Positions 97 through 52,647 of a stretch of DNA of 64,000 nt are shown piece by piece. The notes under the pieces were generated by a model. That model was not told where the DNA came from and searched no databases. It saw only the letters and a program-made list of their open reading frames with translations. The translations under genes and the position numbers were made by a program. How positions within the stretch are numbered: position 1 is the first letter of the stretch; each line of letters begins with the position of its first letter. The DNA lies in assembly GCA_000165345.1 (NCBI GenBank), contig CM000430.1, forward strand, positions 416,001 through 480,000, in the 5' to 3' direction.

Positions 97-2259
97 TTGG
101 CTCCGCAAAAAGTTGCGTTTGTAGTAATAATGTCAATAGAGAGACCTTTTGATTATAAAACTTCATCTCTTTCATCATGGAATTTACAAGAATACATAGC
201 AACTTTGTCTAGCACGAATACATGCCTATTATTTGAAGATATTTCTTGTGTAACTGAATTATTTTCGTCCCTTTCTGAGATACAACAGAATATTGTATCT
301 AGACTTATGATTTTGGGAAATGGATATGGAAATTACATAGGAGAACAAGCTATGAATATATGGATACTTACAACAAAAAGAAATGAATTGGAATATGCAA
401 TTAGGAAATTAAGATCATTAAAAATAATTAAAGTCAATGTACTAGATTCTAACTCCCAAAAAAGTTCATCTGATTCTATTTCTGTGCAATACCAATTAAA
501 CCCAATATTTCAAAAAACTTTATCTAAATTTTTGTATGAAGGGGATATATCTATTGGATTTGAAATGCCAAAGAGAAAATCCGAGATAAAGATCTCGTAT
601 GAATCTCTCACGAAGTTTGTAAGAAAACAATGGAGTAATATTTTGAATATTATTGTTCAATTAAGCGGGAGTCAAAATGTTCCAAAAAATAGTGCTAATA
701 CATTTTATAAATTCAAATTAATTTCCCCGGACACAATAAAAGTTCTGGATAATATCCAATTAATTTCTTGCGATATTGGGAAATACAACAAAAGAAATTC
801 TTCTAATTCAAAGGGACTTAGAATTCAAATTGATAGTAGTTTATCTCAAGAAAGTAATGAACAGTTATTTGATGGTTTTGATCAAGAGGATAGATTTGGA
901 TCTCAAAATGACCAAAATGCACTAGACATATACAACGAGATAAAATATGGTATGGCTGGAAGCAATTCTAACAGTGAAGAAGAATATTTGCCAACCAATA
1001 ATTTAAAAATTAAACCAAAGAAGAGAGTTATTAGTGCCAAACATACCCTTGCAAAAAACCAAGTTGATAAAATATTTGAACAGAAGTTGACACCAAAAGC
1101 TTTTTGTTGGTTACTTTGTGATAGCTGTAATCAATTGTTAATGCTTCTTAATGGATTTATAAAATTAGTAGAGCTTGAGTCAAACATTGAAAATGGAGAA
1201 TACAATTTTAGTCAAATAAACAGTGAAAATATACTAAACCCAACAATTACAAATGTAATAAGTCTAATAATGCGTATTTCAAGTTCAAAAGTTGGCCAGC
1301 CAATTTCAATACATAAGAAAACGAATAATAATATTTTGATGCGATTTGTTTTGTTTGCATATGATTTAGGACTGCTCTATTTTGATGAATCTATTATTGA
1401 GAGTAGTCTATATTCTTTGAAAAATAGATTCGAAAATCTTCGTGATTTAAATATTGAATTATTGTACACTACTCCTTTTTCATTGTTGATTGGCTCTGAG
1501 GGTCTGAAACTTCAAAGTTTATACTCTGCATTTAAAATTGATGACAACTTGATTCAAAAAAGTGACCCCGAAAATATCCAAAATTTTCTTCTTCCATCAC
1601 ATTTTTATTTTGACGAAGAATTATGGCATAAATCAACAACTGAAACAAGCAATGTAAAAATAAACGAACCTAACTGTTTGAGTATGAACTCTACTCGTCT
1701 CGAGGCAGGAATTATTGTTCAAAGTAACTTTAGGATTTACTGTTATACAGCATCTCCATTACAAGCCAAGATTCTTAGACATCTATGTCAAGTTAAGGTT
1801 CGTGGCCCAAACATCATTTGTGGAATATTGACTAGGAAAGGCTTGTTATCCGCATATTCAATGGGAGTGTCAGCTGAACAAATACTTAGATTTTTTTCCA
1901 GCAACGCGCATCCAATAATATTAAGGCGATTTATGTTAGAAGGAACGAGTATTATACCTGTGAATGTAGAAACGCAGTTGAAACTATGGGAGAAAGACAA
2001 AAATAGACTCAAAATTTCCCATGCAAGCACCTTTTCAGACTGGGGAGCAAGCCCTAACGATATTCAGCTATTTAGACAAACGATACTCTATGCAAGAAGT
2101 AAAGACATATTACTTTACAATTCCCCCATTGAATTAACAGAAAAAGAACTAAACTTAAATGTTGAATTACAAAAAAAGATTATATTAGTTATAAAACAGG
2201 AATATGAAGATGATATTAAGACTTTTATTCGAACAAAAAGAGAAGTTATTAATAAATAA
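97..2259 (+). CDS. General transcription factor IIH subunit p52/Tfb2 (GTF2H4)-like, 720 aa
   Basis: Single 2163-nt ORF. The C-terminal block NFRIYCYTASPLQ...QILRFFSSNAHPII...QLKLWEKDKNRLKIS matches the conserved p52/Tfb2 core (NYRLYAYTESELQ...RAHPVM...RLWELERDRLRF) by eye. The N-terminus LQEYIATLSS...VSRLMIL resembles the p52 N-terminus. Contains N/S-rich insertions. Confidence 0.7.
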   Translation: MAPQKVAFVVIMSIERPFDYKTSSLSSWNLQEYIATLSSTNTCLLFEDISCVTELFSSLSEIQQNIVSRLMILGNGYGNYIGEQAMNIWILTTKRNELEYAIRKLRSLKIIKVNVLDSNSQKSSSDSISVQYQLNPIFQKTLSKFLYEGDISIGFEMPKRKSEIKISYESLTKFVRKQWSNILNIIVQLSGSQNVPKNSANTFYKFKLISPDTIKVLDNIQLISCDIGKYNKRNSSNSKGLRIQIDSSLSQESNEQLFDGFDQEDRFGSQNDQNALDIYNEIKYGMAGSNSNSEEEYLPTNNLKIKPKKRVISAKHTLAKNQVDKIFEQKLTPKAFCWLLCDSCNQLLMLLNGFIKLVELESNIENGEYNFSQINSENILNPTITNVISLIMRISSSKVGQPISIHKKTNNNILMRFVLFAYDLGLLYFDESIIESSLYSLKNRFENLRDLNIELLYTTPFSLLIGSEGLKLQSLYSAFKIDDNLIQKSDPENIQNFLLPSHFYFDEELWHKSTTETSNVKINEPNCLSMNSTRLEAGIIVQSNFRIYCYTASPLQAKILRHLCQVKVRGPNIICGILTRKGLLSAYSMGVSAEQILRFFSSNAHPIILRRFMLEGTSIIPVNVETQLKLWEKDKNRLKISHASTFSDWGASPNDIQLFRQTILYARSKDILLYNSPIELTEKELNLNVELQKKIILVIKQEYEDDIKTFIRTKREVINK

Positions 2260-8490: not shown

Positions 8491-8606
8491 TAGATATCAA
8501 TCCTTTATTGACAAGTGATTTAAATTGAAAAATTTATTTCCCAATATTATGCAGTGTTAGACCTGAGGTTGAATAATAATGAATATTTACAATAGCACTT
8601 GTTAAC

Positions 8607-9267
8607 TTACGATTTTTGTTCAGCAATACTTTTATCTGCCCTATAGAACGCAAGTTCAGACTCTAATTCTCTAATTGAGTTTTTTATATTCCTTTTCATA
8701 ACCTTTTTGTCAACCGTTGATATCAACTTCTCAAGTTGAATAATTTTTTTCGCTAAAAATAATTAGAATGAAAATTAAATTTTTAATAAACTTACATTCA
8801 ATTTTTTTCCTCTGATGTACTGTTGCAGAAAGAGATGATAATAAGTTAGTCAAAGCATCTGGGCGTATAACAACTAATGGTATCGGATTAATGCTTGGGA
8901 CCGCATCACCATTTCCAGTTGCGGTGTTCCTTATTTCTTCTCGAAGCTTTCCTTGATTGATACTTACAGGAGCAGTGTTAGGGAACTTTAAAGTCATCTT
9001 TATTGTTGTAGTTGGAGCCCCTGGGGTGGAAAAATTATTCAATTCACTAAATATCGGTCTCTTCTTGCTGAAACTCAAAACATCTGCAGCTTCTCCAACC
9101 AAATTGCTTGTGGCTCCATGTAGATTTTCGAGTTCTTTTTCGTGCTGTAATATACTTTGTCTAAGTTCTAGTAAATTGTTGATTTTATTGTCGCATCTAG
9201 CAACGTTTAAACAGTAGAAAAATAAAAATAAATAAGCAATAAATTGAATTCCAATAAAACCTTTCAT
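8607..9267 (-). CDS. Secreted protein (signal peptide plus coiled-coil C-terminus), 2 exons, unknown function
   Basis: Model: join complement(8607..8752, 8796..9267). Hydrophobic N-terminus MKGFIGIQFIAYLFLFFYCLNVARC. A 43-nt GTAAGT...TTTTTAG intron removes the odd ORF tail and adds a heptad-like C-terminus SKKIIQLEKLISTVDKKVMK...ELESELAFYRADKSIAEQKS. Weakly similar to the neighbouring gene at 9589..10155. Confidence 0.5.
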
Positions 9268-9383
9268 TATTAAAGTATATAAAGCCTTTTATCAGGGTTA
9301 TTATCAACCTTTGAGTATTTGAATTTTTTATTTTTGCAAAATAATTTAGTCATGCATTTTATTAAATTCACTTTAAATTTAAT

Positions 9384-9395
9384 TGCATGCATGCA
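9384..9395. promoter_or_regulatory. TGCATGCATGCA palindromic motif (apicomplexan GCATGC-type upstream element)
   Basis: aattgcatgcatgcattcc, read directly; about 120 bp upstream of the secreted-protein gene start at 9267 (minus). Confidence 0.45.
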
Positions 9396-9588
9396 TTCCC
9401 CACAAACTATTATCATTGTAAAAATTTAATTATTTTTTTAATATGAAGCCTGTTCCATTTAAAAAAAAAATGATTAATATAAAAATCCAATTTAGATTTT
9501 GAATCAAAGCAACTAATCAAAGTGTAAAATTAGGATAATATAAATTAATAAATAATTATTTGACTAAACCATTTAATAGTTAAATTTA

Positions 9589-10155
9589 TTATTTATAGAG
9601 TTCTGCATCAGCAGCAAAGTATGCAGCATTTTGCAAAGTACTTTTTAATGATACTGCTACTTGGTCAGAGTTCACTTTTGGATTTGTAACAGCTTGTGCG
9701 AGAGCCTGCTCATCTACATAAGCTGCACTTCCCGGAGTATTTGCTTCTTTTTGATAGCTTGCCGAGAGGCTTTCTATATCTAATATTGGCTGAGGTGAGG
9801 TTATAATTATCGGAACTTTTGGGCCAGTATTTCCAAAAAATGGCAACTCCCCTAAGCCTGATAATGGCCCATAACCAATTGAAAGCGCTATTGTATCTCT
9901 TCCGTGCCTCACTACAGTTGGAGCTGAACCACTTGATTGATTGTTTTTGTCTGTTATTGGGTCTCCAAATCTCGTTTTCCCTAATGCAGTATTTGATGAT
10001 AGTTCCTTTACCATTTCTTCAAGTGTTGCTTGCTGTTCGAGAAATGTTGAATATAAAGCTCTGTTTCCCAATAAATTCACTCTAATTGACCCAATGTAAC
10101 CGCATCCCATAAAGAGGAATATTAATCCAAAAAATAATCTATAATATTTATGCAT
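9589..10155 (-). CDS. Secreted protein (signal peptide), paralog-like to 8607..9267, unknown function
   Basis: 188-aa ORF with hydrophobic N-terminus MHKYYRLFFGLIFLFMGCGYIG. Shares segments with its neighbour: NLLGNRALY...LEEMVKEL versus NLLELRQSI...KELENL, and NTGPKVPIIITSPQPILDIESL versus NTATGNGDAVPSINPIPLVVIRPDAL. Confidence 0.45.
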   Translation of the reverse strand: MHKYYRLFFGLIFLFMGCGYIGSIRVNLLGNRALYSTFLEQQATLEEMVKELSSNTALGKTRFGDPITDKNNQSSGSAPTVVRHGRDTIALSIGYGPLSGLGELPFFGNTGPKVPIIITSPQPILDIESLSASYQKEANTPGSAAYVDEQALAQAVTNPKVNSDQVAVSLKSTLQNAAYFAADAELYK

Positions 10156-10569
10156 TTTGTCTTAAAAAATGAATAATTCAAATAATATTATACTCAAGAA
10201 TTAAAATCCTATGTTCAATTTAAACAATATTGCTAGAACTTCCTGAAATAGGAAAAATGGCTGCATGCGGAAACAGATTGCATGAATAAAAATACATGTA
10301 AAACGATACTTGTCACAAGTGACATTCATACCGCCATGTGTACGCATGATGACCGCCGAGTGTACATGTGGCTGAATTTACAGGTAGATCATTGTGGGGT
10401 CATTTTTACGCCAGTAAATTCAAATAATTTATAATTTATGTGGAAAAAAATATTGCCAGTTATTACAATAAAGTATTTTTAAAAAATATAATAAAAAGTT
10501 GTATATCGCACAAATTCGTAAGTTTGAAAACATGAAGGAGTAGTTAGGCAATTTATTACATTTTAGAAA

Positions 10570-11030: not shown

Positions 11031-14000
11031 TCATTTAGTTTTGTTCCATGGCCCCTCTTCTACTCCAGGACAGATCGACTGTGCCATGTGCAGGTTGTTT
11101 TGTGAAATATATTTTGACGTATGGAGATTGCTTGCAGCCTTGTTTGAGAGCTCACTGGCTATTGGTTCTATTGTTTCGCCTTGACCTGTAGGATTGTTTA
11201 ACATTCCCGAATTAGATTTCATTTGTAGTATAATCGGCCCAATATCTGGAAGCGACGAGAGTAGACTTCCATCACGATAGCGCAGATTAAGTAGGCCGTT
11301 CAGAGTTACAAACGCAGTTTTCAGAAATGACTCATTTACGCCAAATGTGCACGTTTCTCTAACCAACTCCGCGTAATTTTGCACATGCTTAAGCATCTCA
11401 TAGTACTCTGATTGTTGCTCATGAAGTGTTCTGAAATAAAAGTTTGCAGCAGCCCCATCAAATTGTATAGGCCCAGGGTTGCAAAAGCGGTCTTGCATTG
11501 CCCAATGTTCCTGAACGATTTTTAACCAACGATATGCTTTACCTTTCAGATCCACTTCACTAGAAGGAATTGTAGGAATGTTGCTTGGGAGTTCAGGATG
11601 GGTCTCATCGTTGGAAGGAACAATTTTCATTAGGCAATTAAATGGTATTGCTGTCATTCTCCAATCGGAAACATCGCCGCACAACCCTCTAATAGAACAA
11701 AGATGGCCTGTTAGTCCGCTCTCAACAACTATCGAAGCAAAATGCCCAAGCGCATACCCTAGCTTTGCATCAAACTGTGATGGCATAGCAGATCTACCCT
11801 GATATCCAAAAAAGTGTGTAAACGGCTGAAAATTGCCATTATATTTATTATCTTGTTTTCTTTTCTTAAGCTCCTTTTTTATCATTAAAACAAGAAGTGC
11901 CTCGGTCTCTATCGCGGAAAATGCAGAGTCAACATCTAATGAAAGTATTTCTCTTCTAATGAACCTAGGTAATGACTTAAATAATGCGAGACTCCAGGGA
12001 GTCATTTTAGAAGAGTATTTACTTCCATCAAAGCTATCTGTAGGGCTATGTTCCTGATTCGCAGCCGAACTTTTGTTATCAGCCACATCTACGCGAGAGC
12101 TTTTTTCTTGGCTATTTGTGTGATCGGACAATGTGGGGTGATCGCTGTGTCCCAAACTCATCATTTCAGACATAAATAATTTCATCTCGGAATGTTCTTC
12201 AGCGAATCTTCGTAATTCATTTATTTCAGAAATTAAAATCTTCATATCTGGTAAATGTGAAAGTAATGCATCTGGAATGAGTACAGTTCCGAAGTTCTTT
12301 CCAAACTCCGCTCTCTTACATATTACATCTGCCACATCTTCTACGATGTGAACAAGAGTTTTATCAGCTGCTCCATATTCTTCAGCAATTATTACAACAT
12401 TTGGATGTGTCTGTAGTGCGCACTCCAGAACTTCATTTGAAGGTTGCCTTCCCATTAATCTAATAAAATGCCAATATTTAGGCATTGAAGCAGCATCCGT
12501 TAATACATTTCCAATTAAGCTTGCATACAATTTAGTGCTTGAATCAAACCCTACGCATGCCTCTACTAGATCATTTGCTAAGTTGTTAGACGCAGTTGCT
12601 GGGACGCCAACAACCTTAGTATTACAGTTATTTTGTAGAAAATACTCTGCCAAGATTGCGCCCTGGGTCATTCCAAATGCAGAGCCACACAATACAAGGC
12701 CATCCAAATGTAAACTTTCACAAACCTTTCTAGCCTTTTCCAAATTCTCTTTCGAAACTAAACACTCTGTATACGTTCTTCCAATTAATTCCGATCCTCC
12801 TTGATTTGGCAAAAGATCTACATCTTTCTCAGTAAGTGTAATATGCTTCCCTTGCAAAAATCCTTTAACTCCATAAAAGCCCAAACATCTTCCCCTTACC
12901 ATTTTCAGACGGTGGTATAGTCCCCATACCACATTTGCAATTCCAGGTGCTTGTCTAGACATAAGCAATACTCCTATTCTCAACCCTACATTGGGCTCTT
13001 CAGATGAAATGTCAAGTTGCGCTTCTTGGCAATAAAAGTGATTTGAATTACATAAATGAGGATAACAGGTTGTAATCTGTCTTTTTATCAGAGGATCAGA
13101 TAAATTATATTGAGTAGTCGGTTTACATCTTGCTTTAAGGTGGGTAAGTAGCAGTGGCAACGGAGGTCTATATGTTGTGCGATAAAGTTGGAGAGAGGAG
13201 AGGGTTCCCTGAATTCTATTAAATACACCTCTTTTCCCTCCCCCATTATTTGGTTGTACAATATTTATATCAGTATCTGTAACTGAGGCATCCTCTCCGC
13301 ATAATAAATCTTGTAACTCCGGCGTTCTTACAATATAAGGGATAGTTTCAGAGCATGGGCCTTCGAATTGTAAAGGTCCAGGCGCCCTATATAAATCTTG
13401 AAACTTCCAAATATCTCGAACCTGTTTTAATAGTTTGAAAAGTGGCCCATTCAAATCGACTAACTGACGAGTAACTGCAGCATAGCACTGACCGTCTTGT
13501 CTGGATTTTTTAACTTCCATAATTCTAGTAATACTTATACCGCATGCTTGCCAACTAAGAGGATTCCCTTCTAATCCTCTTATAACTGCCAAGTAACCAT
13601 TCATACCTTTATAAACCAACGCTCCTGCGCAATGGCCCAGTGCGTAACAATAGTTAGAATCAAAATTAGATGGCATGGCGCATCTTCCTTCATAACCCAA
13701 ATAATGATGCATCATTGTAAATCCAAAAGGCATCAGTATTGAGCCATTTGACTTATTTGAAATTTCTACCTGATCTGAAATTGTTTCCTTGGTTTGGCCA
13801 TGTTCAAAATCATAATAGAAAGATGTTCCATGCCTCCTATGTAACTCTGCTTCAACAAGTAGTATAAGTAATCTCTCTGTTGCTATTTTTGCAACTTGTA
13901 TTTGGCCAGTAGCCTCTCTATCAAGTAACAATTGCTCTCTAATATTTTCTGGAAGGTACTCCCAAATTTTTGCAGAAGACTCCGAAAGACAACTGCATAT

Positions 14001-15311
14001 CTTTTTATCAAAGTCGTCAGGTGAAGCTTCCTGATCGCATTCAGACCCCTCATACTTTAACTTATCAAGGATTTCATTTAATTCTTGAATTAAAATTTTC
14101 ATTTCTGGGATAAACTCAATTAAGCCTTCAGGTATTAATATTATGCCATACATTTTGCCCATTTTTGAACGCTCTTCCATTAAATCTACAATATTCTTCA
14201 CTATTTCAAATAATGTTATTCCTTCTTGTTCAACTTCTTCTGCAATGAAAACAATATTTGGTCTTGTTTGCAATGCGACTTCCAGAGCCAAATGCGATGC
14301 TGATCTACCCATAACTCTTACGAAGTGATAGACATTTTGTGATGTACAAATGTCTGAGCAAAGATTACCTACGCACTCAGCGTAAGTCCTCGCAGCAGTA
14401 TCAAATCCAAAAGAGACTTCAATAGCAGGGTTTTTTAAATCTCCATCAATAGTTTTTGGGACCCCTACAATACAAAAATTTTTGTTTTTCTTTGCCATGT
14501 AATCCGCGATCAACGCAGCATTTGAATTTGAGCCATCACCTCCAATAACAATTAATCCATGTAATTGAAGCTGCTCGCAAACTTTTTCAACTCTTTCCAA
14601 ATCTTGCTCTCCATTAATTCTCCCTCTACCAGACCAAAGCATATCAAAACCTCCTTGGTTTCTAAATCGATCCATTAATTCATCTGAAATAACCTTATAA
14701 GTTGATTTGAAAAGACCATCTAACCCACCTAAAAATCCGAATAGCTGGCTATCAGGGTGATGATTCTTAATAAAATCATATACACCGCAAATGACATTAT
14801 GTCCGCCAGGTGCAGGACCACCTGATAATACAATTCCAACTCTAAGAGCATGGTCTGAATTCTCCGAGTTCTTTGATTCATCTCGAGTTATTTCAATGCA
14901 TGGTCTCCCAAATGTGTTCGGTAACAATTCTTTGAGTTTATTCTCATCTTTTTGGATCAAGTCAGGAATTTCAATCTCTTTTATTTTTATGCAGTTTGAA
15001 GATAAGGAATATGGCAATGTTGGCACCCATTTTTGTCTTTCTAATTGCACGGGACTAAAGTTTTCAAAGAGATCTGCTGAGTGCAAATGAGGTTTTCCAC
15101 CCATTGACAATTTAAATGAGTCTAACCTAGTTGCAATATTACGTTCTATTGAATCTCTTCTACGAATATGCTTTTGAGACGTTATCGCTTTAGAAATTAA
15201 TGGAATACTACGTTCTTTATCGATATGAGTGTCTTCAAGTATTACAGCCAAACTTCTAAGCCGGCGAATAGCATTTCTTTGGCTTCTGTTCATTTCTCCA
15301 TTCAAAAACAT
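11031..15311 (-). CDS. Phosphofructokinase, long duplicated (beta-alpha fused) PFP-type, 1426 aa; phosphoryl donor (PPi versus ATP) not decidable from sequence
   Basis: The N-terminal half has canonical PFK motifs GGPAPGGHNV, IGGDGSNS, PKTIDGD and MGRSASH. The C-terminal half is homologous but degenerate at these positions (SRQAPGIANV, CGSAFGMTQG, PATASNN, MGRQPSN). The architecture matches the ~1400-aa apicomplexan PFKs. Confidence 0.9.
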   Translation of the reverse strand: MFLNGEMNRSQRNAIRRLRSLAVILEDTHIDKERSIPLISKAITSQKHIRRRDSIERNIATRLDSFKLSMGGKPHLHSADLFENFSPVQLERQKWVPTLPYSLSSNCIKIKEIEIPDLIQKDENKLKELLPNTFGRPCIEITRDESKNSENSDHALRVGIVLSGGPAPGGHNVICGVYDFIKNHHPDSQLFGFLGGLDGLFKSTYKVISDELMDRFRNQGGFDMLWSGRGRINGEQDLERVEKVCEQLQLHGLIVIGGDGSNSNAALIADYMAKKNKNFCIVGVPKTIDGDLKNPAIEVSFGFDTAARTYAECVGNLCSDICTSQNVYHFVRVMGRSASHLALEVALQTRPNIVFIAEEVEQEGITLFEIVKNIVDLMEERSKMGKMYGIILIPEGLIEFIPEMKILIQELNEILDKLKYEGSECDQEASPDDFDKKICSCLSESSAKIWEYLPENIREQLLLDREATGQIQVAKIATERLLILLVEAELHRRHGTSFYYDFEHGQTKETISDQVEISNKSNGSILMPFGFTMMHHYLGYEGRCAMPSNFDSNYCYALGHCAGALVYKGMNGYLAVIRGLEGNPLSWQACGISITRIMEVKKSRQDGQCYAAVTRQLVDLNGPLFKLLKQVRDIWKFQDLYRAPGPLQFEGPCSETIPYIVRTPELQDLLCGEDASVTDTDINIVQPNNGGGKRGVFNRIQGTLSSLQLYRTTYRPPLPLLLTHLKARCKPTTQYNLSDPLIKRQITTCYPHLCNSNHFYCQEAQLDISSEEPNVGLRIGVLLMSRQAPGIANVVWGLYHRLKMVRGRCLGFYGVKGFLQGKHITLTEKDVDLLPNQGGSELIGRTYTECLVSKENLEKARKVCESLHLDGLVLCGSAFGMTQGAILAEYFLQNNCNTKVVGVPATASNNLANDLVEACVGFDSSTKLYASLIGNVLTDAASMPKYWHFIRLMGRQPSNEVLECALQTHPNVVIIAEEYGAADKTLVHIVEDVADVICKRAEFGKNFGTVLIPDALLSHLPDMKILISEINELRRFAEEHSEMKLFMSEMMSLGHSDHPTLSDHTNSQEKSSRVDVADNKSSAANQEHSPTDSFDGSKYSSKMTPWSLALFKSLPRFIRREILSLDVDSAFSAIETEALLVLMIKKELKKRKQDNKYNGNFQPFTHFFGYQGRSAMPSQFDAKLGYALGHFASIVVESGLTGHLCSIRGLCGDVSDWRMTAIPFNCLMKIVPSNDETHPELPSNIPTIPSSEVDLKGKAYRWLKIVQEHWAMQDRFCNPGPIQFDGAAANFYFRTLHEQQSEYYEMLKHVQNYAELVRETCTFGVNESFLKTAFVTLNGLLNLRYRDGSLLSSLPDIGPIILQMKSNSGMLNNPTGQGETIEPIASELSNKAASNLHTSKYISQNNLHMAQSICPGVEEGPWNKTK

Positions 15312-26769: not shown

Positions 26770-27120
26770 TTATTCATTTGAATCTTCAATAATTACCATT
26801 CCTTCGATCACATCAGTATCAATAATATGTATGATTGTATCCCAATCTAGATCATTATTTCCATTTTTCGAATTACTAGTTGAGTTAATAAATCCTTTTT
26901 TCATGTTTGAATTTTGAGTTTTGTGTTTTACTATTAAACTAAAGCTCTCGTTATCGCTGCATTCATCCAATTCTGATGAGCTAGTTTTCCTGATACTTGA
27001 ATTCTTTTTTACTGAATTTTTTAGTCCTATTGAAATATTTGATTTGATCTTGCTTTTGTTATTTTCAACTTCGGTGTTGATTTCTTTAGAATAATTCGTT
27101 TTTGATTGCTCATTACCCAT
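26770..27120 (-). CDS. Small S/N-rich protein with a predicted N-myristoylation start (MGNEQSK), about 116 aa
   Basis: The ORF track extends through a poly-T tract (MYVDIYIYNCVFFFFFFF), which is implausible as coding. The first sensible ATG is at 27118..27120 and gives MGNEQSKTNYSK (Gly2/Ser6 myristoylation consensus). No homology recognised. Confidence 0.4.
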   Translation of the reverse strand: MGNEQSKTNYSKEINTEVENNKSKIKSNISIGLKNSVKKNSSIRKTSSSELDECSDNESFSLIVKHKTQNSNMKKGFINSTSNSKNGNNDLDWDTIIHIIDTDVIEGMVIIEDSNE

Positions 27121-27307
27121 ATGCCTTGAATAAATTTCGAGAAGAGCTAATAAAATAACAAAGCGTTGCAGAGCGCATGCAAAAAAAAAAAAAAAAAAAA
27201 ATACACAATTATAAATATATATATCTACGTACAAGAACGCACTTACATATTTTTATTAAAAATCAATAAATTAATATTTTAATAATTTATTTTTTAAAGT
27301 ATTAATA

Positions 27308-29693: not shown

Positions 29694-30905
29694 CTAAACT
29701 TGAATAATACGCGTAAGTCTCTGCAATCTATTTAGCAATAAGTCACCTTTTTGAACGAGCTCGTTATATTGATTTATTTTTTTGTCATTTCTACTACAGA
29801 TTATTACTTGCTTAACTTTGTCAATTGTACATGAGAGTTTTGAAGAAGATATGAAAGTTACAATATCTTTTTCTAGAAACTCTTGAGTAATTCCAAAAGA
29901 TTCTGCCATACTCAAAATAGAAACGGATTCGTATGGCTCAAGATACTGTATGTATGCCTTAGACCTGACTATTCTCAAATAATACTTGTGGTGGCGATTA
30001 AAATAATAGTCCTTCTGTAGTATATAAGTGATGTTGACTAACCTTTCGAAGAATTGGCTATACCTTCCGTAGTAGAAACTCTCGATGAATTCAAGTAAAA
30101 ACTTGTTATCTGGTTGTAGCGCAATTTTTAATATATCAGGACTAGTTAGTAGCTTTGACTTAATGGTTCTCCTGTCTATGGAAATTATCGACGAAACTAT
30201 TGTATAAAATATTAGACGATCGAATGAAATTAGTTCAGCTGCTGTGAATGTAGTTAGCGAATCCAGAAATAGTTCTGAAGCGGCAGAGAAATTTCTAGTT
30301 ATAAGATAATATATTGCCTTATAGACTTTAAATCTATTTTTCCTTTCCCAGTCACTAGTAGTTTTGAAAAGGTCCTCTGCTCTCTTAATGTACTTGCTAA
30401 TTAGATTCAGATCATTCCAAAAAAAACCTGTTCTAATTCCAAGAAAAAGCAGTTCTAACTTGAATCCGCCTATTGTTTTCTCAATAGCGACTTCTAATTC
30501 TTGTAAACTCTTTTCTTTTGAACCAATTCTAGAATAAAATACTAATTTTTTATAGTGGCAGTTTCTTACTTCTACATCACCGTAGTTTTCTCTTGCATCT
30601 TTGATTTTTTCATTAATCTCATTTAATTCACTATTATTATCTTCTATTAATACATCCAAAAACTTTTCGTCATTATCTAGAATCTTAATATCTTTACTGA
30701 GAATTTTGAATAGTGGGGCCATACTATTTTTTTTAATATATGAAAGAATTTCATTTTTCATTGATTCCTTCTCACCAAATTTACAATATTTTGAATCCAG
30801 CTGGCAAATTTTTTCTGAAAGCTTTAGATCTGGGACTGATTGTAGCAACTCCTCGGGGTTCATAGATAAGTCCAACACTTCTTTTAACTTGTTTCCAATA
30901 CCCAT
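29694..30905 (-). CDS. 26S proteasome regulatory (lid) subunit Rpn7/PSMD6, PCI domain, 403 aa
   Basis: C-terminal block RHHKYYLRIVRSKAYIQYLEPYESVSILSMAESFGITQEFLEKDIVTFISSSKLSCTIDKV...KGDLLLNRLQRLTRII aligns with the Rpn7/PSMD6 PCI tail (...KGDLLLNRVQKLSRVI). Confidence 0.8.
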   Translation of the reverse strand: MGIGNKLKEVLDLSMNPEELLQSVPDLKLSEKICQLDSKYCKFGEKESMKNEILSYIKKNSMAPLFKILSKDIKILDNDEKFLDVLIEDNNSELNEINEKIKDARENYGDVEVRNCHYKKLVFYSRIGSKEKSLQELEVAIEKTIGGFKLELLFLGIRTGFFWNDLNLISKYIKRAEDLFKTTSDWERKNRFKVYKAIYYLITRNFSAASELFLDSLTTFTAAELISFDRLIFYTIVSSIISIDRRTIKSKLLTSPDILKIALQPDNKFLLEFIESFYYGRYSQFFERLVNITYILQKDYYFNRHHKYYLRIVRSKAYIQYLEPYESVSILSMAESFGITQEFLEKDIVTFISSSKLSCTIDKVKQVIICSRNDKKINQYNELVQKGDLLLNRLQRLTRIIQV

Positions 30906-31018: not shown

Positions 31019-31040
31019 TTTGGCGGCATGCAGAAGCGGC
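31019..31040. promoter_or_regulatory. E2F-like TTTGGCGGC overlapping GCATGC in the divergent promoter between Rpn7 and the 31330 gene
   Basis: catttggcggcatgcagaagcggc, read directly. Lies between divergently oriented starts at 30905 (minus) and 31330 (plus). Confidence 0.45.
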
Positions 31041-31329: not shown

Positions 31330-32190
31330 TTGAGAATGAACAAAACGATTTCTTCTGACAACCTTAAGGATGCAGTTAGAAAGTGGCATGCAAAGAGAAA
31401 AAAAGACTCAAATAACCAAGCAAATAGTGAAAACACGGGATCAGAACCTGAAGGTATATTTGGTACAAAGAAGCATGATGTTAGACACATTTCTGCATGG
31501 AGCCACAATAATTTTGTTGAATCAAACCAATTATCTCACTTCACAAATGAGCAAAAAAGACCAAGACCGACTGTAATAGAGAACAACATTAAATATATAT
31601 TTGATGGGCCTTTGTCTTTTGATACTATAATGGCATTGAAAAGGAAAAAATCAAATGTGATTTTTAGCAATAATGAAAAAATCCTCAATAACCCCAATAT
31701 TGAACAAAATGATTCTAAAAGCGCAATAAATCAATGCTACACACATCAAACAAATAACTCTCAGGTAATGGACAATTTTAAAGATGAAATTAATATTATA
31801 TACTCAAAGTCTATAAGCGCTGTTCAAAATTTTTTCAAGATCAGTTCAATGTCTGAGGTAATAAATTTACTAGAATACATTTTAAACTTTTTATCATTCA
31901 GCACTCAAGAGTTGATCAGTAGATATAATAAAAAAGCTTATTTTGACAGGCATGAGAAGTCACTAGGCATTTGCATTAATTTTATTTTAAACAAATCTAA
32001 TCTAACGGATGAACAGTTTGACGAAACATCACTGGAATACCTTGCCAAATATCCTAAAGTTTTTGAATCACTTAAGACGTTGACCAAAATCAATGGGTTA
32101 AATGATACGGTACCCAGCGAAATAAGTAATCATATTCAAAAGTTAAACTCGCAGATTGACAAGATTTACAATTTGCTATTAAATAGGTAA
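31330..32190 (+). CDS. Hypothetical protein, 286 aa
   Basis: An 861-nt ORF, an unlikely chance length at this AT content. No motif recognised. Confidence 0.4.
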   Translation: MRMNKTISSDNLKDAVRKWHAKRKKDSNNQANSENTGSEPEGIFGTKKHDVRHISAWSHNNFVESNQLSHFTNEQKRPRPTVIENNIKYIFDGPLSFDTIMALKRKKSNVIFSNNEKILNNPNIEQNDSKSAINQCYTHQTNNSQVMDNFKDEINIIYSKSISAVQNFFKISSMSEVINLLEYILNFLSFSTQELISRYNKKAYFDRHEKSLGICINFILNKSNLTDEQFDETSLEYLAKYPKVFESLKTLTKINGLNDTVPSEISNHIQKLNSQIDKIYNLLLNR

Positions 32191-47496: not shown

Positions 47497-47540
47497 TTGG
47501 CGGCTTAGATCAAAGTACCGTAATGCGCATGCATCACGTG
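47497..47540. promoter_or_regulatory. Composite E2F-like (TTGGCGGC) plus GCATGCA plus CACGTG motif cluster upstream of the ferlin gene
   Basis: gatttgttggcggcttag ... taatgcgcatgcatcacgtgg, read directly; 50-90 bp upstream of the ATG at 47587. Confidence 0.4.
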
Positions 47541-47586: not shown

Positions 47587-50500
47587 ATGGTTAGAAACGT
47601 GAGATCGAAATATGTTGTTGGATTTACTATTCATGCTGGGAAGGGGTTTATTACTCCGAATCAAAGCCCAATAAACCCATTAGTTGTAGTAAGATGTTGC
47701 GGAAGAGAATACAGGAGCAAAATTAAGTACAATAAGTTAATTGCGACTCAATGGGATGAATCCCATTCATGGAACGATATATTTTTGACTGATTCTGAAT
47801 GGGAAATGTCATTTATTACTTTTGAGGTACAATCTGCCAATTCATTTTGGAAAAATGATGTAATTGGACAATGTTCAATACAATTAAAAACACTTAAACA
47901 GAGAAAAAATCACTTTTTAAAAAGGCATTTCAACATTACTGAGCTTAATGATACTTTTCCAAAAGGATTGCTTTATTTAACAGTATATGCATGCGGTCCG
48001 AATGATACTCCCCCGACAAGCGATATACTGGAATTAATGAATGCAGAAGAAGATAACTTTCAGAATAATCAAGTTGATTTCCTAAATCAAATTGTAGGAG
48101 CTCACGAAATGAAAAAAGAGTTCTCAACTTTAGAAAGAGAAAAGCAGATGTATAATTTATATGTAACAATTTATAGGGTTGAAGATTTATTATTCAAAAA
48201 AGGGCTAAGAGACCCTTTTATAACAGTAGAGTTTAGTGGTTGTAGTATGCAATCATCAATTGCTCGCGGTGTACTAGATCATAATTTTAATGAGTGCTTT
48301 AGATTTCCTGTTGTTGTACCAATCGTTGAGGACATAATAATATTAAAATTATGGGATAATTCAACAAAACCCCCAGCAATCATTACGCAAGGAAAGTTTT
48401 CATTTGCGAGAGTTAGATCTACAACAATCCCTGTAAGATGGTATAACTTTTATGGAAATTCTGCACTAAATATAGAACTTGGGAATAAATATTCGAACGA
48501 TATTTTCTTTACAGAAAATGTTTCTTCCCAAAGCGATATTTATTTAGGGAGAATACTTATTTCCATAAAAACAGAGCTATTAAGAAATAAAGATCAATTA
48601 ATGCCGGCTCAAGTGATAGCTGCTCAGCCGCTTGATGAGCTTTTTACTCAGCCATGCAATATAATCGCAGATGTATACTCAATTAAAGGCATTTTTGGAA
48701 GAAATGCATGCGTAGAGGTTTCGGTTGGGCCAAATAAACAGAGAACTGAATTTGTTTCGCGTGAGGTCGAAGGACAAAATTATGATAACTGTAAAAACAA
48801 TATAGTTAACAAATCAAAAAAACAACAAAGTATGGATAATTTTGTCTATGGGTCAACACAAGGTAGGGTTCCAAATATTGAAATTGAGTCTCAATCAAAG
48901 GAAGAATTTACTTGGGATATAATCATATCAGTTTATACTCACACTAATTCAAATGTTAATAAGGTGGATGCTCAAGGAATATTGAGTAGTAGTGAGCTGG
49001 CTCATGGTTCCAAAAGAGTTGCATATTGTCGATTAAAAATAATCGACATACCGCATTACATCGAAAATAAGCCACTACCACCTATTTGGATTCCATTAAA
49101 ACAAACAAGAGATGGTTGGATAGATATGATAGATAACAAGGAAAGAAGTTACAATAATAGATTTGAACCTTTATCAGAGACCGAAAACGAAAAAAATATT
49201 GAAACTAATAATATACAAGAAATTGACTTGTATAGTATTGGCTCAAGCGCTATCTTGATCTCAATTTCTAAGCAATTTGCTTCATCAGTAAAGCGTACAA
49301 AGAGGCACACAATAAAGTGTATAGATTATGAGTTAAGATGTTATTTGTATGCTTGCAGAAATCTTAATGAAACAGGAAAAGATAGGACAAATCCCTATAT
49401 AGTAGTTTCATGCAATGGAGTCTATACAACATCTTCTGTTAAAGTTAATACAAATAATCCAACATTTTTAGAATGCTTATTTTTGAGAGTGAAAATAGAA
49501 TCTGATCCTTTAACATCTTTTCCAACTGTTGCGCCCATCACAATAAGTGTATTTTCAAGACATAGTTGGGGAAAAAGATTTATCGGATTATGTACCTGTA
49601 TATATGACAGAATTAATGGAAGGAATAAAAATAATGAGCCTATTAGTACCTTAGAGCCATTTTGGATTAAATTAAAAGGTGGTGCAAGGTTGAACAATCA
49701 TGTCGGCGATATTTTACTTTGTATTGATATTGTTAAACTGTGCGATTCAAAAATGGTGCCACCACAACCTTTATTTCCAGAATTAAAAAGGGTACAAATG
49801 ATAGTTACTACTACTCTTCTTCAAGATTTATTTATGATGACTGAAGAAGATATTCAATATAATATTAAGTCAAAGCTTTCTCAGGATGAAGATTTATCAC
49901 TCTTAAACCAAGGAATAATAGGTTCAAAGATTGAAAGATATAGAATTTTAAAGGAGATGAATGGTAATTTTTTTCTTGAAAATCATGAAAGGGGAAATGT
50001 ATATTCAACAGAAATAAAAAACCCAGTTATTGAGTTCACTGTAAGCGCTTTTGGAAGAGTTGATGCTACCACAGAAGGATCTGAAAATGTTGGTGATAAG
50101 CTACTAAAAAATTCAGAGGGTAGAACAAAATCATCTAGTAGTATTCCAACATATAGGCAGATTGTACAGTGGAAGTCTATAACATCCGCTGGGGCAAAGG
50201 AATTTTTCAATAAATCTTGGAAAACTTTAAGAGGGTACAACTTCGAATTCTTCAAGACAATCTCTCTAGATATTTTTTTACCGTTATCACCATTATTTGA
50301 TCCAAGACTCACAATAAGAATCTTTGAAGGGTTAGTAGATGATTCTAAACTAGTTGGCGAGTTTGTTATATCTTTAGTTTCGTTTCTACCTTGGATACCT
50401 GATGTTGATTCTGCTCACGAGTGGATTTCTTCAAAGCATGATTTTTCTAATAACATAGATATTGCAAAAATAACAAATGTATTATCAAAAGGATCTAAAA

Positions 50501-52647
50501 AAAAAAACTTAATTAAACATTCTGGCTTAGCAAGTATTGCTCTTGCAGATATGGAAGAAGATAAAGAAAAAAAGATGAATTCAACAGCGCACCCTTTCCC
50601 TGCTGTTTCACAACAAGAAGAAATGGAAGAACTTAAAAAAAAAAGTTTAATGAACCACGGGTTAAACCAAGCTGGAGTTCCAATTACTTTAATAAAGTCG
50701 TATACTGTTTCCAATGTATATTACCCTAGGATATCGCAGAATATGTTCACGATTAATTTACATATCCCGTTTCACTTTATTATTGTTGCAGAAGGAAAGA
50801 CTACTGATAAAAGAAATAATTTGAAAATCATGATATCAAATTCAGGGATGGATACAGGAGGAGTGATTACTACAAGCACATCTGGAAAGACAGTTTCACT
50901 CCGCCCATCAATTGACTCAACTATGGAAGAATTTCTGTCAGATATTCTTATTCCAATAATTCCTGTGAGAAAAAAAGGGTTTGATGGAAAGATGAAGACA
51001 TTTGGGTACTTAAGGGGATATATTCTCTTAGCATTGCCTGGGGTACTAGATGAAATTAATTCTAAGAAGAGCAATGAGAATATTACAAACGATAATATAG
51101 ATGAAGACGAAATCATATCTCAAGAAATAAAACAAGCAGTTGAGAATAACAAAATTTCTAGATGTTACAGCCATGAGATGATCAGATACATAATAAATAT
51201 AAATAGTTTATATAAGAGGATCAAAGGTGATAATGTGTACCCAAATCCTGTAAGAGTACGTCTATATATATTGTCCGCATTGGCACTAGTAGTCCCAATT
51301 GACTATAGTGAAAATATTTATCAGCAATCACTTGAAAAAAAAACGTTCTTTGAAAAAATTAAAGATAAACTATCAATAATAAATATGTTTGAACAAAACA
51401 TAAGGATAAAATCATTTTATATTTCAATTGTTTACGGTTCAAAGGAAGAAAATTTTAGGTCGACTGCAAAGGGGACATTAAACCCTTTATTTTATGTATG
51501 CCAGGAGTATAACGTAAACTTTCCAGTTGAATCTAGGTTTGAGATTAGGGTTTGGGGAATACAAGAAAAAGTTTATCCATATCTAGCATGTAAAGTACTT
51601 GGGCTACTGAATCAGGAAAAGAAAGAAGATGGCGAAAATACCGATCTGAATGGAAATTCGAATAATGATTTGGTTATTAATGAAATTAATAATGAAGTTT
51701 GCCAGGAGTTGGGACCTGAATATGATGTTTTTATTGGGAGTACAGCCATGGACTTAACTGATAGATGGCATAGCAAAGAATGGCGTCAGATGATGAGAGA
51801 AGATCATATACCCATTGAATATCGTCCACTATACAGGGACTGCACAAGTAATGTCAACTATGGTTTGCTACAAATGTGGGTTGAAATTATGAGTTCAAAT
51901 AAAGCAGCAGTTACAAAAAGGTACGAGCTTTCAGAACCTGTACCAACAGAAGTGGAAGTTAGGGTCATTATCTGGGCAGGAAGAGATATAAAGACTGCAA
52001 ATAATTTAGATTATGGAGATTATTTATTTAAATCTACCCTGGATTGCAAACAGTATCCAGAATTTAGGCCAGATTTTGGTAATAATAACCCAAGGGTACA
52101 ACAGACTGATGTTCATTATAATTGTAGAACTGGGGAACCTGTTTTTAATTGGAGGCTTGTTTATCCGCACCTGGTAACACCAATAAGTGGTTGTTTACTT
52201 CAAATTTCAATTTACCATTATAGCTCATTTGGAAATCACGAATTTATCGGCGAAGTTAATTTGGACTTAAGGAAATACATAATGAATGTTGCAAATTCGT
52301 TAGAGGCAATTGATGAAGATGTCGAATTGCCACTTGTGAACTCACAAAGCGTAGATTCGTCATTTGATGCCGGTTTTGTGCAAGTGACAATTCAAATAAT
52401 TCCTCAGTCAGAAGCAAATAGTAAAAAGGTTGGAATGGGGAGAGATATACCAAATAGATTTCCGAAACTAGTAACTCCTTCAGTTGGAAGAAACTGGGAG
52501 GATTTCTTACAACTGAAGGAAAGGCAGGATGCACTTAGACCTATTTGGCTGAAAATAAGAATCGTTTATGTAATTTTTGCGATATTATTATTTTTTATCA
52601 TAGGTGCAGTATATCCTGCATTGTTTTACCAGTCAATTTATTCCTAA
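47587..52647 (+). CDS. Ferlin-like multi-C2-domain protein with C-terminal transmembrane anchor, 1686 aa
   Basis: Several C2-like beta-sandwich regions along the protein. A single C-terminal TM (IVYVIFAILLFFIIGAVYPALFY) with a few residues of tail. Architecture diagnostic of ferlins. Confidence 0.7.
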   Translation: MVRNVRSKYVVGFTIHAGKGFITPNQSPINPLVVVRCCGREYRSKIKYNKLIATQWDESHSWNDIFLTDSEWEMSFITFEVQSANSFWKNDVIGQCSIQLKTLKQRKNHFLKRHFNITELNDTFPKGLLYLTVYACGPNDTPPTSDILELMNAEEDNFQNNQVDFLNQIVGAHEMKKEFSTLEREKQMYNLYVTIYRVEDLLFKKGLRDPFITVEFSGCSMQSSIARGVLDHNFNECFRFPVVVPIVEDIIILKLWDNSTKPPAIITQGKFSFARVRSTTIPVRWYNFYGNSALNIELGNKYSNDIFFTENVSSQSDIYLGRILISIKTELLRNKDQLMPAQVIAAQPLDELFTQPCNIIADVYSIKGIFGRNACVEVSVGPNKQRTEFVSREVEGQNYDNCKNNIVNKSKKQQSMDNFVYGSTQGRVPNIEIESQSKEEFTWDIIISVYTHTNSNVNKVDAQGILSSSELAHGSKRVAYCRLKIIDIPHYIENKPLPPIWIPLKQTRDGWIDMIDNKERSYNNRFEPLSETENEKNIETNNIQEIDLYSIGSSAILISISKQFASSVKRTKRHTIKCIDYELRCYLYACRNLNETGKDRTNPYIVVSCNGVYTTSSVKVNTNNPTFLECLFLRVKIESDPLTSFPTVAPITISVFSRHSWGKRFIGLCTCIYDRINGRNKNNEPISTLEPFWIKLKGGARLNNHVGDILLCIDIVKLCDSKMVPPQPLFPELKRVQMIVTTTLLQDLFMMTEEDIQYNIKSKLSQDEDLSLLNQGIIGSKIERYRILKEMNGNFFLENHERGNVYSTEIKNPVIEFTVSAFGRVDATTEGSENVGDKLLKNSEGRTKSSSSIPTYRQIVQWKSITSAGAKEFFNKSWKTLRGYNFEFFKTISLDIFLPLSPLFDPRLTIRIFEGLVDDSKLVGEFVISLVSFLPWIPDVDSAHEWISSKHDFSNNIDIAKITNVLSKGSKKKNLIKHSGLASIALADMEEDKEKKMNSTAHPFPAVSQQEEMEELKKKSLMNHGLNQAGVPITLIKSYTVSNVYYPRISQNMFTINLHIPFHFIIVAEGKTTDKRNNLKIMISNSGMDTGGVITTSTSGKTVSLRPSIDSTMEEFLSDILIPIIPVRKKGFDGKMKTFGYLRGYILLALPGVLDEINSKKSNENITNDNIDEDEIISQEIKQAVENNKISRCYSHEMIRYIININSLYKRIKGDNVYPNPVRVRLYILSALALVVPIDYSENIYQQSLEKKTFFEKIKDKLSIINMFEQNIRIKSFYISIVYGSKEENFRSTAKGTLNPLFYVCQEYNVNFPVESRFEIRVWGIQEKVYPYLACKVLGLLNQEKKEDGENTDLNGNSNNDLVINEINNEVCQELGPEYDVFIGSTAMDLTDRWHSKEWRQMMREDHIPIEYRPLYRDCTSNVNYGLLQMWVEIMSSNKAAVTKRYELSEPVPTEVEVRVIIWAGRDIKTANNLDYGDYLFKSTLDCKQYPEFRPDFGNNNPRVQQTDVHYNCRTGEPVFNWRLVYPHLVTPISGCLLQISIYHYSSFGNHEFIGEVNLDLRKYIMNVANSLEAIDEDVELPLVNSQSVDSSFDAGFVQVTIQIIPQSEANSKKVGMGRDIPNRFPKLVTPSVGRNWEDFLQLKERQDALRPIWLKIRIVYVIFAILLFFIIGAVYPALFYQSIYS

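Follow-up and report, generated by a model that had tools for sequence, protein, structure and literature searches.

Two adjacent Cryptosporidium parvum genes encode conserved signal-peptide proteins that are expressed in female gametes and classified with the crystalloid body

Do two neighboring genes for small signal-peptide proteins on chromosome 2 of Cryptosporidium parvum belong to a fast-evolving tandem family of host-interaction factors, or do they serve the parasite elsewhere in its life cycle? The question was raised by a prediction made from a 64,000-nucleotide stretch of that chromosome (hereafter the window). The tandem, same-strand arrangement that it described is present, with open reading frames (ORFs) at 9589..10155 (188 aa) and 8731..9267 (178 aa unspliced), both on the minus strand, and the peptides it quoted were found, NTATGNGDAVPSINPIPLVVIRPDAL in the gene that starts at 9267 and NTGPKVPIIITSPQPILDIESL in the gene that starts at 10155. 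In the direction of transcription cgd2_2110 (10155..9589) comes first and is followed, after 321 nt, by cgd2_2100 (9267..8547). The gene with the intron and the TGCATGCATGCA element, which had been called the 5' gene or upstream copy, is therefore the downstream (3') member, cgd2_2100. The identity of the pair was determined by exact matches to protein entries of C. parvum Iowa II, by the label cpbgf_2002100 for cgd2_2100, and by published qPCR primers that map to 8854..8875 and 8967..8988 (cgd2_2100) and to 9916..9936 and 10093..10114 (cgd2_2110); the published primer pairs for these two genes and for cgd2_2130 all fall in the expected ORFs. Both genes are already catalogued, as is the AP2_1 motif discussed below.

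Comparison with orthologues led to a corrected, three-exon model of cgd2_2100. Exon 1 (8796..9267, minus strand, as are all parts of the gene), read from the ORF, holds the signal peptide, residues 1 to ~25 (9193..9267), recognized by its n-h-c features. Intron 1 (8753..8795; 43 nt, phase 1, GTAAGT..TAG) follows ..QRKKIE and is as had been proposed. It has GT..AG boundaries and is conserved in five species: C. muris (55 nt), C. ubiquitum (45 nt), C. felis (46 nt) and C. ryanae (53 nt) each have an intron at the identical position and in the same phase, with the conserved exon 2 after it. Its removal yields a 205-aa product identical to the deposited proteins WKS76506.1 and KAL5370003.1. Exon 2 (8611..8752), which encodes a helical C-terminal region beginning KKIIQLEKLISTVDKKVMKRNIKNSIRELESELAFYRADKSIAEQK, is supported by the spliced reading, the orthologues and AlphaFold2. 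The gene does not end at 8607, as the in-frame TAA at 8607..8609 that was taken for its stop codon sits in the donor of a second intron (8563..8610, 48 nt), where the exon ends in TC and the intron opens with GTAAGT. This donor is invariant in the five species, with intron lengths of 44–58 nt. Cross-species comparison placed beyond it a micro-exon of only 16 nt (8547..8562), which encodes ..S-SNTA and the stop codon, for a full product of 209 aa; the models QOY43023.1/cpbgf_2002100 and OLQ19070.1 use intron 2. C. parvum, C. ubiquitum, C. felis and C. ryanae all encode SNTA in the micro-exon, and every nucleotide difference among these four is a synonymous, third-position one. C. muris, which has SNTV, differs in addition at position two of the final codon and in its stop codon (GTT TGA for GCA TAA). 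Among the deposited orthologue models, several are truncated or wrongly spliced.

The second gene is simpler. The coding sequence of cgd2_2110 (9589..10155, minus strand) is a single exon for 188 aa, identical to EAK88782.1/Q5CTQ3, and is one uninterrupted ORF in all species examined. Its signal peptide, residues 1 to ~23 (10087..10155, minus strand), has an n-h-c layout with a putative cleavage site between MHKYYRLFFGLIFLFMGCGYIGS and IRVN. That both proteins start with a signal peptide, as originally predicted, was borne out by an n-h-c N-terminus in every orthologue (11/11 for cgd2_2110), with no later transmembrane-like segment. The orthologues of both genes have one to three K/R residues, then a 10-residue window of mean Kyte-Doolittle hydropathy 1.9–3.5, the exception being an N-terminally truncated C. 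ubiquitum model of cgd2_2110 that has no K/R. Across species only 5–7 of the 23 signal-peptide residues of cgd2_2110 are identical, and its mature part is 62–95% identical.

The two mature proteins are both cysteine-free and have opposite character, that of cgd2_2100 being basic (~20 kDa, pI 9.7) and that of cgd2_2110 acidic (~165 aa, 17.5 kDa, pI 5.1). AlphaFold2, run on 11-sequence alignments, returned models with mean pLDDT of 61 for cgd2_2100 (pTM 0.21) and 43 for cgd2_2110 (pTM 0.20). In the former, helices at residues 136–170 and 173–204 have pLDDT 70–84, and mature cgd2_2100 is predicted to be largely helical. A Foldseek search of this low-confidence model against the PDB returned only matches with E > 7, and a sequence profile search of the PDB gave no meaningful match for either protein. 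Pfam searches of both proteins and of their C. muris orthologues, read out to E = 10, gave noise only (best E = 0.013–4, unrelated families, far under the curated cut-offs). Single-sequence and profile searches of a 5.8-billion-protein collection found no homologues outside Cryptosporidium; the cgd2_2100 profile retrieved only Cryptosporidium proteins, and an exhaustive HMM search of 1.84 billion representatives found no homologue of cgd2_2110 outside its own family. Two UniRef names, "Ribosome recycling factor domain-containing protein" for cgd2_2100 and "Lipoprotein" for cgd2_2110, were rejected as artefacts of automatic annotation. A bacterial-type lipoprotein would require the lipobox Cys18 of LFMGC to be conserved, but C. 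felis and C. muris have I at this site and other species F, S or L, and the organism is a eukaryote.

An evolutionary comparison ran counter to the proposal that the pair had diverged rapidly. Estimates of dN/dS were 0.065–0.095 for cgd2_2100 and 0.028–0.049 for cgd2_2110, on par with the neighboring housekeeping genes (0.031–0.048; HMG-box ~0.03, PFK ~0.05), and the mature proteins of C. parvum and C. ubiquitum are 91–95% identical. Each gene occurs once, in conserved synteny, in all five species compared, which range from C. parvum to C. muris. Judged by these sequence comparisons, the mature proteins of both genes are under strong purifying selection. SKSR and MEDLE are tandem secreted-protein families of Cryptosporidium, which cgd2_2100 and cgd2_2110 resemble in being adjacent on one strand, small, equipped with signal peptides and restricted to the genus. 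The pair differs from them in having two members of barely recognizable kinship that are single-copy, syntenic and under purifying selection, and that are expressed in females rather than in asexual or invasive stages.

Published data place the transcripts of both genes in females, and they are absent from asexual stages and sporozoites. In the sorted-cell RNA-seq of Tandel 2019 both are at the floor value of 0.96 log2 CPM in asexual stages, rising in females to 6.57 in vitro and 7.51 in vivo for cgd2_2100 (logFC female versus asexual 5.6) and to 12.09 in vitro and 11.14 in vivo for cgd2_2110 (logFC 11.1). Both also belong to the 107 genes for which a single time point accounts for >80% of expression, in their case 72 h (Mauzy 2012). 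Depletion of the female-specific factor AP2-F lowers cgd2_2110 by log2 1.33, alongside CCp1, CCp2 and cgd2_790; cgd2_2100 does not figure among the genes with a significant change after AP2-F loss. Both cgd2_2100-RA and cgd2_2110-RA are in the 13-gene crystalloid-body class that Tandel et al. 2023 worked with, a classifier output of hyperLOPIT spatial proteomics as it appears in the R code supplementing that paper, a companion to the hyperLOPIT study (Guerin et al. 2023). No tagging or microscopy of either protein was found in the searchable literature. The two share with the crystalloid-body proteome a signal peptide, female-gamete-specific transcription and, as far as that code documents it, the spatial-proteomics class, and the AP2-F response of cgd2_2110 is similar in size (log2 -1.0 to -1.5) to that of the AP2-F-responsive subset, which includes CCp1/cgd7_1730, CCp2/cgd7_300, cgd2_790, cgd7_5140 and cgd8_4290. 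The better-known crystalloid members are large, multidomain proteins of adhesive type (LCCL, discoidin, ricin, PH-like) with Plasmodium orthologues, whereas cgd2_2100 and cgd2_2110 are small proteins free of known domains and of cysteine, with homologues in Cryptosporidium only. Membership of the LCCL/CCp (LAP) family was rejected since Pfam found no such domain, the PDB gave no sequence match and no homologue exists beyond the genus in the searches described above.

The upstream regions hold candidate elements for this expression pattern. As predicted, TGCATGCATGCA lies about 120 bp upstream of cgd2_2100, 117–128 nt from the ATG at 9267 (9384..9395), and is made up of the palindromic AP2_1 motif TGCATGCA twice, the copies overlapping. 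A G-box, TGTGGGG (9398..9404, minus strand), is situated 2 nt 5' of it on the sense strand of cgd2_2100. C. ubiquitum and C. felis carry the 12-mer unchanged, and all five species compared keep its TGCATG core. Beside this core the G-box is preserved in C. ubiquitum, C. ryanae and C. muris, while C. felis has TGTGGG there. A scan upstream of cgd2_2110 identified GCATGCA, a match to AP2_1 in seven of eight positions (10262..10268; TGCATGC on the plus strand), and a second TGCATG (10279..10284), which together span 107–129 nt upstream of the ATG at 10155; GCATGC itself is at 10263..10268, 108–113 nt from that ATG. Orthologues of cgd2_2110 have at least one GCATG-containing site (TGCATG, CATGCA or GCATGC) 78–178 nt upstream of the annotated start in each of the five species examined. 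The idea of a shared GCATGC promoter holds to the extent that an element of this type precedes each ATG by ~110–130 nt, but the elements belong to two separate upstream regions. In the window TGCATGCA is not above chance (two overlapping matches against 1.0 expected, with 28 of 100 shuffles reaching two), and its significance derives from its conservation across species rather than from its count.

AP2_1-like TGCATGCA is bound by AP2-F (cgd4_1110) and by cgd2_3490 (PF14_0633 orthologue group), both female-specific, and the female-specific cgd8_810 binds G.GGGG, an upstream motif already known from C. parvum. The likeness to these systems is an exact, doubled TGCATGCA adjoining a G-box at cgd2_2100 and the seven-of-eight match at cgd2_2110, the known binders being female-specific like both genes. 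However, AP2_1 occurs widely in the genome and has several ApiAP2 binders, some of them not stage-specific, so the motif alone does not specify female expression. At this locus the elements are putative binding sites. The footprinted G-box and AP2_1 element could act as a compact female-stage promoter. Cross-species alignment also brought out a highly conserved non-coding block (10290..10415) in the interval that separates cgd2_2110 from the divergent HMG-box gene. Within it are two GGCGG sites, an inverted G-box and several CATGTA sites. The block hardly differs in C. ubiquitum, C. felis and C. ryanae, comparisons in which synonymous sites have reached or nearly reached saturation, and C. muris retains part of it. 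It is likely a shared cis-regulatory module. Other identities for it were considered and rejected: as a non-coding RNA it has no Rfam match, and neither strand shows a covariation-supported structure or compensatory pairs. In the alignment, the C/D-box-like AUGAUGA..CUGA that C. parvum has in this block is not conserved in C. felis or C. ryanae, and a 50-codon ORF is frame-shifted in C. ryanae.

Taken together, these data make it probable in our judgment that cgd2_2100 and cgd2_2110 are separately promoted female-gamete genes whose signal-peptide proteins are delivered to the crystalloid body, a reading that leaves aside whether they are paralogues. Both genes would be kept off in the asexual stages and in sporozoites and be activated in female gametes, most likely through ApiAP2 factors acting at TGCATGCA (AP2_1) and the G-box ~110–130 nt upstream of each ATG. 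AP2-F has been shown to be needed for full cgd2_2110 expression, and the link between motif and factor at this locus is presumed. Each pre-protein would then enter the secretory pathway by way of a cleavable signal peptide, and the mature, Cryptosporidium-restricted proteins would reach the crystalloid body, to which the classification in the supplementary code assigns them, and be inherited by sporozoites. Their role is probably that of structural or matrix components for oocyst and sporozoite formation rather than one at the host interface.

Two other explanations of the locus must be weighed against this one. The host-interaction family put forward originally draws on features that the pair does have, namely signal peptides, small size, genus restriction and no known domains, but it now appears very improbable. 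The dN/dS values of 0.03–0.10, equal to those of neighboring housekeeping genes, the high mature-protein identity between C. parvum and C. ubiquitum, the one-to-one syntenic copies in all five species and the female-specific transcripts all argue against it. In addition, the supplementary classification puts the pair in the crystalloid-body class, not among rhoptry, dense-granule or small-granule effectors, and the genes fall in the female-gamete and crystalloid-body sets, not in the invasion or host-exported sets, as far as those sources document them. The other explanation concerns transcription: the genes could form a polycistronic unit that starts at the conserved block, with the intergenic TGCATGCATGCA serving only as an internal or alternative promoter. 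There are C. parvum reports of polycistronic transcripts of two to four same-strand genes with a single 5' open-chromatin peak that carries an E2F motif, and the present genes are on the same strand, closely spaced, and preceded by a block with GGCGG sites. Such a unit is nevertheless unlikely, as transcript levels of the two genes are ~4–5 log2 units apart in sorted females, only cgd2_2110 responds significantly to AP2-F loss, and the deep conservation of the intergenic AP2_1 and G-box is what would be expected of an independent promoter.

Whether the two genes descend from a local duplication, as was also proposed, is a closer matter. A collinear similarity is there, with all of its signal in the C-terminal halves, but it is marginal, with p from ~0.001 to 0.2 depending on method. 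BLASTP of one protein against the other gave E = 0.17, and hhalign P = 0.019 with signal peptides and 0.21 for the mature regions alone, at probabilities of 0.3–2.5% (0.3% for the mature regions). HMM-versus-sequence scores were at the 0.015–0.33 level of shuffles. Single-sequence Smith-Waterman comparisons against shuffles gave p = 0.001, 0.031, 0.078 and 0.018 in four species, and one alignment register was common to the four species pairs. Profile-profile Smith-Waterman gave z = 3.1–4.9 and p = 0.009–0.012 by column permutation (0.001 with cheaper gaps); circular shifts were dropped as a null because a local alignment survives shifting. By halves, the C-terminal portion reached p = 0.003 and the N-terminal p = 0.20. 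The profile alignment pairs each family's most conserved block, IPLVVIRPDALTNLLSSLSAT with VPIIITSPQPILD-IESLSAS, as well as C-terminal AFYRAD with AYFAAD. The two AlphaFold2 models are of too low a confidence for a comparison of folds; the order of secondary-structure elements is similar, which is weak evidence. No intron positions are shared, cgd2_2100 having two conserved introns and cgd2_2110 none, and OrthoMCL places the proteins in different groups.

On balance, a tandem duplication older than the radiation of the genus has a little better than an even chance of being correct. Adjacency, common orientation, similar length and shared expression and compartment class raise the prior for duplication, and if the genes are duplicates their divergence would be ancient and long frozen by purifying selection. 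A serious competitor, to which we give somewhat less than an even chance, is that the genes have no common ancestry and are neighbors recruited into one female-stage regulon, their likeness being one of composition and architecture. The architecture meant here is a signal peptide, an amphipathic helix, a linker and C-terminal helices. The BLASTP and mature-region hhalign values, the HMM scores, the non-significant N-terminal halves, the different intron content and the separate OrthoMCL groups all suit unrelated neighbors. Less readily explained without ancestry are the several independent scoring schemes that agree on one collinear register at p ~0.001–0.03 against shuffles, an alignment that superimposes each family's single most conserved block, and the placement of two co-oriented genes of similar length, expression and compartment class side by side. 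The weak case for shared ancestry of cgd2_2100 and cgd2_2110 is, like the corrected gene model, the faulty orthologue models and the footprinted promoter element, a modest gain of this analysis. The pair flagged as a candidate host-interaction family represents instead two of the 13 proteins of the crystalloid-body class, as given in the supplementary code. Being deeply conserved and confined to the genus, they are sensible candidates for tagging and knockout in work on transmission.

A more specific and rather doubtful possibility is that the proteins are ancient tandem duplicates specialized into an obligate hetero-oligomer of a basic partner, cgd2_2100, and an acidic one, cgd2_2110. Such an oligomer would build a Cryptosporidium-specific lattice or matrix that gives structure to the vesicles of the crystalloid body, which the female gamete would deposit and oocyst transmission would depend on. 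The helical C-terminus of cgd2_2100 has a net charge of +6 and the corresponding C-terminal region of cgd2_2110 one of -4, an asymmetry that is conserved in C. muris. The co-conservation, adjacency and co-classification of the two proteins are also consistent with a hetero-oligomer.

The window belongs to C. parvum chromosome 2; its 1426-residue ORF (11031..15311) and the two small ORFs match C. parvum Iowa II proteins exactly. Both small genes are on the minus strand, with cgd2_2110 (10155..9589; 188 aa; EAK88782.1/Q5CTQ3) transcribed first and followed by cgd2_2100 (start at 9267; EAK88783.1/Q5CTQ4; cpbgf_2002100 in the newer annotation). Their classical identifiers were fixed independently by mapping the qPCR primers of Mauzy et al. 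2012: those for cgd2_2100 match 8854..8875 and 8967..8988, those for cgd2_2110 match 9916..9936 and 10093..10114, and those for cgd2_2130 fall in the phosphofructokinase (PFK) gene. Since cgd2_2110 comes first in transcriptional order, the gene that the original prediction called the 5' gene or upstream copy, cgd2_2100, is the downstream one. The sequence observations behind that prediction were mostly right, the quoted peptide segments being present in both proteins, and its gene model could be improved.

The proposed intron of cgd2_2100 (intron 1, 8795..8753, minus strand; 43 nt, GTAAGT..TAG, phase 1) is correct, as it has GT..AG ends, its removal yields a 205-aa product identical to deposited proteins, and C. 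muris, C. ubiquitum, C. felis and C. ryanae each have a 45–55 nt counterpart with identical codon position and phase, after which the exon is conserved. The proposed gene end at 8607 does not hold, as the TAA at 8607..8609 sits within an invariant donor, TC/GTAAGT. A second intron of 44–58 nt is found in all five species, followed by a 16-nt micro-exon encoding SNTA and a stop (SNTV in C. muris). Nucleotide changes in the micro-exon of the four SNTA species are confined to third codon positions and are always synonymous; C. muris has further changes at the second position of the final codon and in the stop. Because the donor is invariant and the intron and micro-exon are conserved in five species, the best model has three exons (9267..8796, 8752..8611 and 8562..8547, minus strand) and encodes 209 aa, as in QOY43023.1. 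Retention of intron 2 gives 205 aa and its splicing 209 aa ending in SNTA, and public annotations hold both forms. In the segment 8547..8610 a conserved donor thus contains a stop codon (TCG/TAAGT read as TC/GTAAGT). The conserved S-N-T-[AV] terminus is loosely reminiscent of a class I PDZ ligand.

Several deposited orthologue models are faulty. Those of cgd2_2100 are unspliced, with spurious intron-encoded ends, in C. ryanae (locus L004, 3001..3680), C. xiaoi (P0040), the chipmunk genotype (P0033), C. parvum Iowa II (P0011) and C. hominis TU502 (P0016); removing the intron at its conserved position brings back the conserved C-terminus, as demonstrated for C. ryanae. For cgd2_2110, the C. ubiquitum model (179 aa; locus L002) appears N-terminally truncated, and an in-frame ATG 30 nt upstream of its start (region 2111..2140) would give back MHKSYRFLFG; the C. 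hominis TU502 model (P0004, 252 aa) has 64 spurious residues added at its N-terminus by reading through the promoter.

As originally proposed, both genes are predicted to begin with a signal peptide, since one to three basic residues followed by a strongly hydrophobic stretch open both proteins and every orthologue. These peptides share only 5–12 of 23–25 residues between species and the mature proteins 61–95%, the pattern expected for a cleaved targeting sequence. No candidate membrane-spanning segment follows the signal peptide in either protein or any orthologue, and for both proteins Pfam, PDB and AlphaFold2 failed to give a domain, a relative of solved structure or a confident fold, as did Foldseek with the cgd2_2100 model. 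No relatives outside Cryptosporidium were found by exhaustive profile search for cgd2_2110 or by sequence and profile searches of a 5.8-billion-protein collection. Both mature proteins lack cysteine and have opposite net charges (pI 9.7 for cgd2_2100 versus 5.1 for cgd2_2110), features repeated in C. muris; the charges would allow a heteromeric pair without demonstrating one.

Direct comparisons were consistent with the suggested local duplication of the genes but weak: BLASTP gave E = 0.17, hhalign P = 0.019 with signal peptides and 0.21 for the mature regions of corrected models, and Smith-Waterman comparison of mature proteins (1000 shuffles) p = 0.001 in C. parvum, 0.031 in C. muris, 0.078 in C. 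felis and 0.018 in C. canis, and each species aligned the C-terminal regions in an identical register. HMM-versus-sequence scores lay at the 1.5–33% level of shuffles, and profile-profile Smith-Waterman with column permutation gave p = 0.009–0.012 (0.001 with cheaper gaps). As several settings were tried, an honest overall level for paralogy is ~0.01. The signal is confined to the C-terminal halves (p = 0.003), where the most conserved blocks of both families are superimposed (IPLVVIRPDALTNLLSSLSAT on VPIIITSPQPILD-IESLSAS; AFYRAD on AYFAAD). Against duplication, the N-terminal halves are not significantly similar (p = 0.20), intron positions lend no support and OrthoMCL puts the two genes apart. 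Considering the similarity together with adjacency, orientation, size, expression and compartment, we lean slightly towards common ancestry. If a duplication occurred, it predates the C. muris/C. parvum split.

The original prediction also cast the pair as fast-evolving host-interaction factors, which several lines of evidence contradict. C. muris, C. ubiquitum, C. felis and C. ryanae all keep the gene order PFK >, HMG-box <, cgd2_2110 >, cgd2_2100 >, Dis3-like <. Where dS was not saturated, mature-region dN/dS was 0.065–0.095 for cgd2_2100 and 0.028–0.049 for cgd2_2110, alongside 0.031–0.035 for the HMG-box gene and 0.048 for the PFK C-terminus; both proteins evolve slowly. Expression is female-specific: in published sorted-cell RNA-seq, asexual stages show only the floor value for either gene (0.96 log2 CPM), and females give 6.6 (in vitro) and 7.5 (in vivo) for cgd2_2100 and 12.1 and 11.1 for cgd2_2110. 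In a bulk series, whose order (sporozoite, 24 h, 48 h) is inferred from the sample sheet, both seem off in samples 1–6 and are near 9 in the last three. Finally, in the sporozoite hyperLOPIT map as used by Tandel et al. 2023, both belong to the 13-gene crystalloid-body class. That class also lists another run of consecutive identifiers, cgd8_4290, cgd8_4300 and cgd8_4310, which hints that crystalloid-body components tend to cluster in the genome. According to reviews, crystalloid-body proteins are made by females for progeny sporozoites and the organelle's function is unknown. The genes, their expression, compartment class and motif are all already in the literature.

A GCATGC-motif promoter had been proposed as common to both genes. 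The motif does lie upstream of each, but as separate elements, so each gene has its own and the promoter is not shared. Upstream of cgd2_2100, TGCATGCATGCA lies at 9384..9395, 117–128 nt from the ATG. It is the sole TGCATGCA site of the 64-kb window, its two overlapping matches (1.0 expected) not exceeding chance; GCATGC occurs 13 times versus 6.4 expected. The element's weight comes from conservation and not from window counts: within an otherwise poorly alignable intergenic region, five species keep its TGCATG core unchanged, and C. ubiquitum and C. felis share the full 12-mer. TGTGGGG precedes the element in most species, and two of the window's three TGTGGGG sites lie upstream of cgd2_2100 or cgd2_2110. 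For cgd2_2110, GCATGCA lies 107–113 nt and a second TGCATG 124–129 nt upstream, and every orthologous promoter has at least one GCATG-containing site (TGCATG, CATGCA or GCATGC) 78–178 nt from the annotated start. A ~125-nt non-coding block (10290..10415) separates cgd2_2110 from the HMG-box gene (start 10576). Its sequence hardly differs among C. parvum, C. ubiquitum, C. felis and C. ryanae, whose synonymous sites have reached or nearly reached saturation, and C. muris keeps part of it. An inverted G-box (CCCCAC), two GGCGG and several CATGTA sites fall within the block, which has no Rfam match or covariation-supported structure and probably serves one or both divergent genes as a composite regulatory module.

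In the literature, TGCATGCA is the AP2_1 motif and G.GGGG the G-box, both over-represented upstream of C. parvum genes; AP2_1-like sequences are bound by the female-specific factors cgd2_3490 and AP2-F (cgd4_1110), and the G-box by female-specific cgd8_810. AP2-F depletion lowers cgd2_2110 2.5-fold (log2 -1.33), alongside CCp1, CCp2 and cgd2_790; cgd2_2100 is absent from the significant list. In the proposed mechanism, female-stage ApiAP2 factors, including AP2-F with its demonstrated effect on cgd2_2110, would work through the AP2_1 and G-box elements. The proteins would enter the ER via their signal peptides, go to the crystalloid body, as the proteomic class indicates, and be inherited by sporozoites, where they may have a structural or matrix role. 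Elsewhere in the window, GCATGCA occurs between divergent ORFs (31026..31032, flanked by 29694..30905, minus strand, and 31330..32190, plus strand), ~60 nt upstream of the plus-strand ORF 47587..52647 (47527..47533), and within a 154-codon minus-strand ORF, 26770..27234 (27175..27181).
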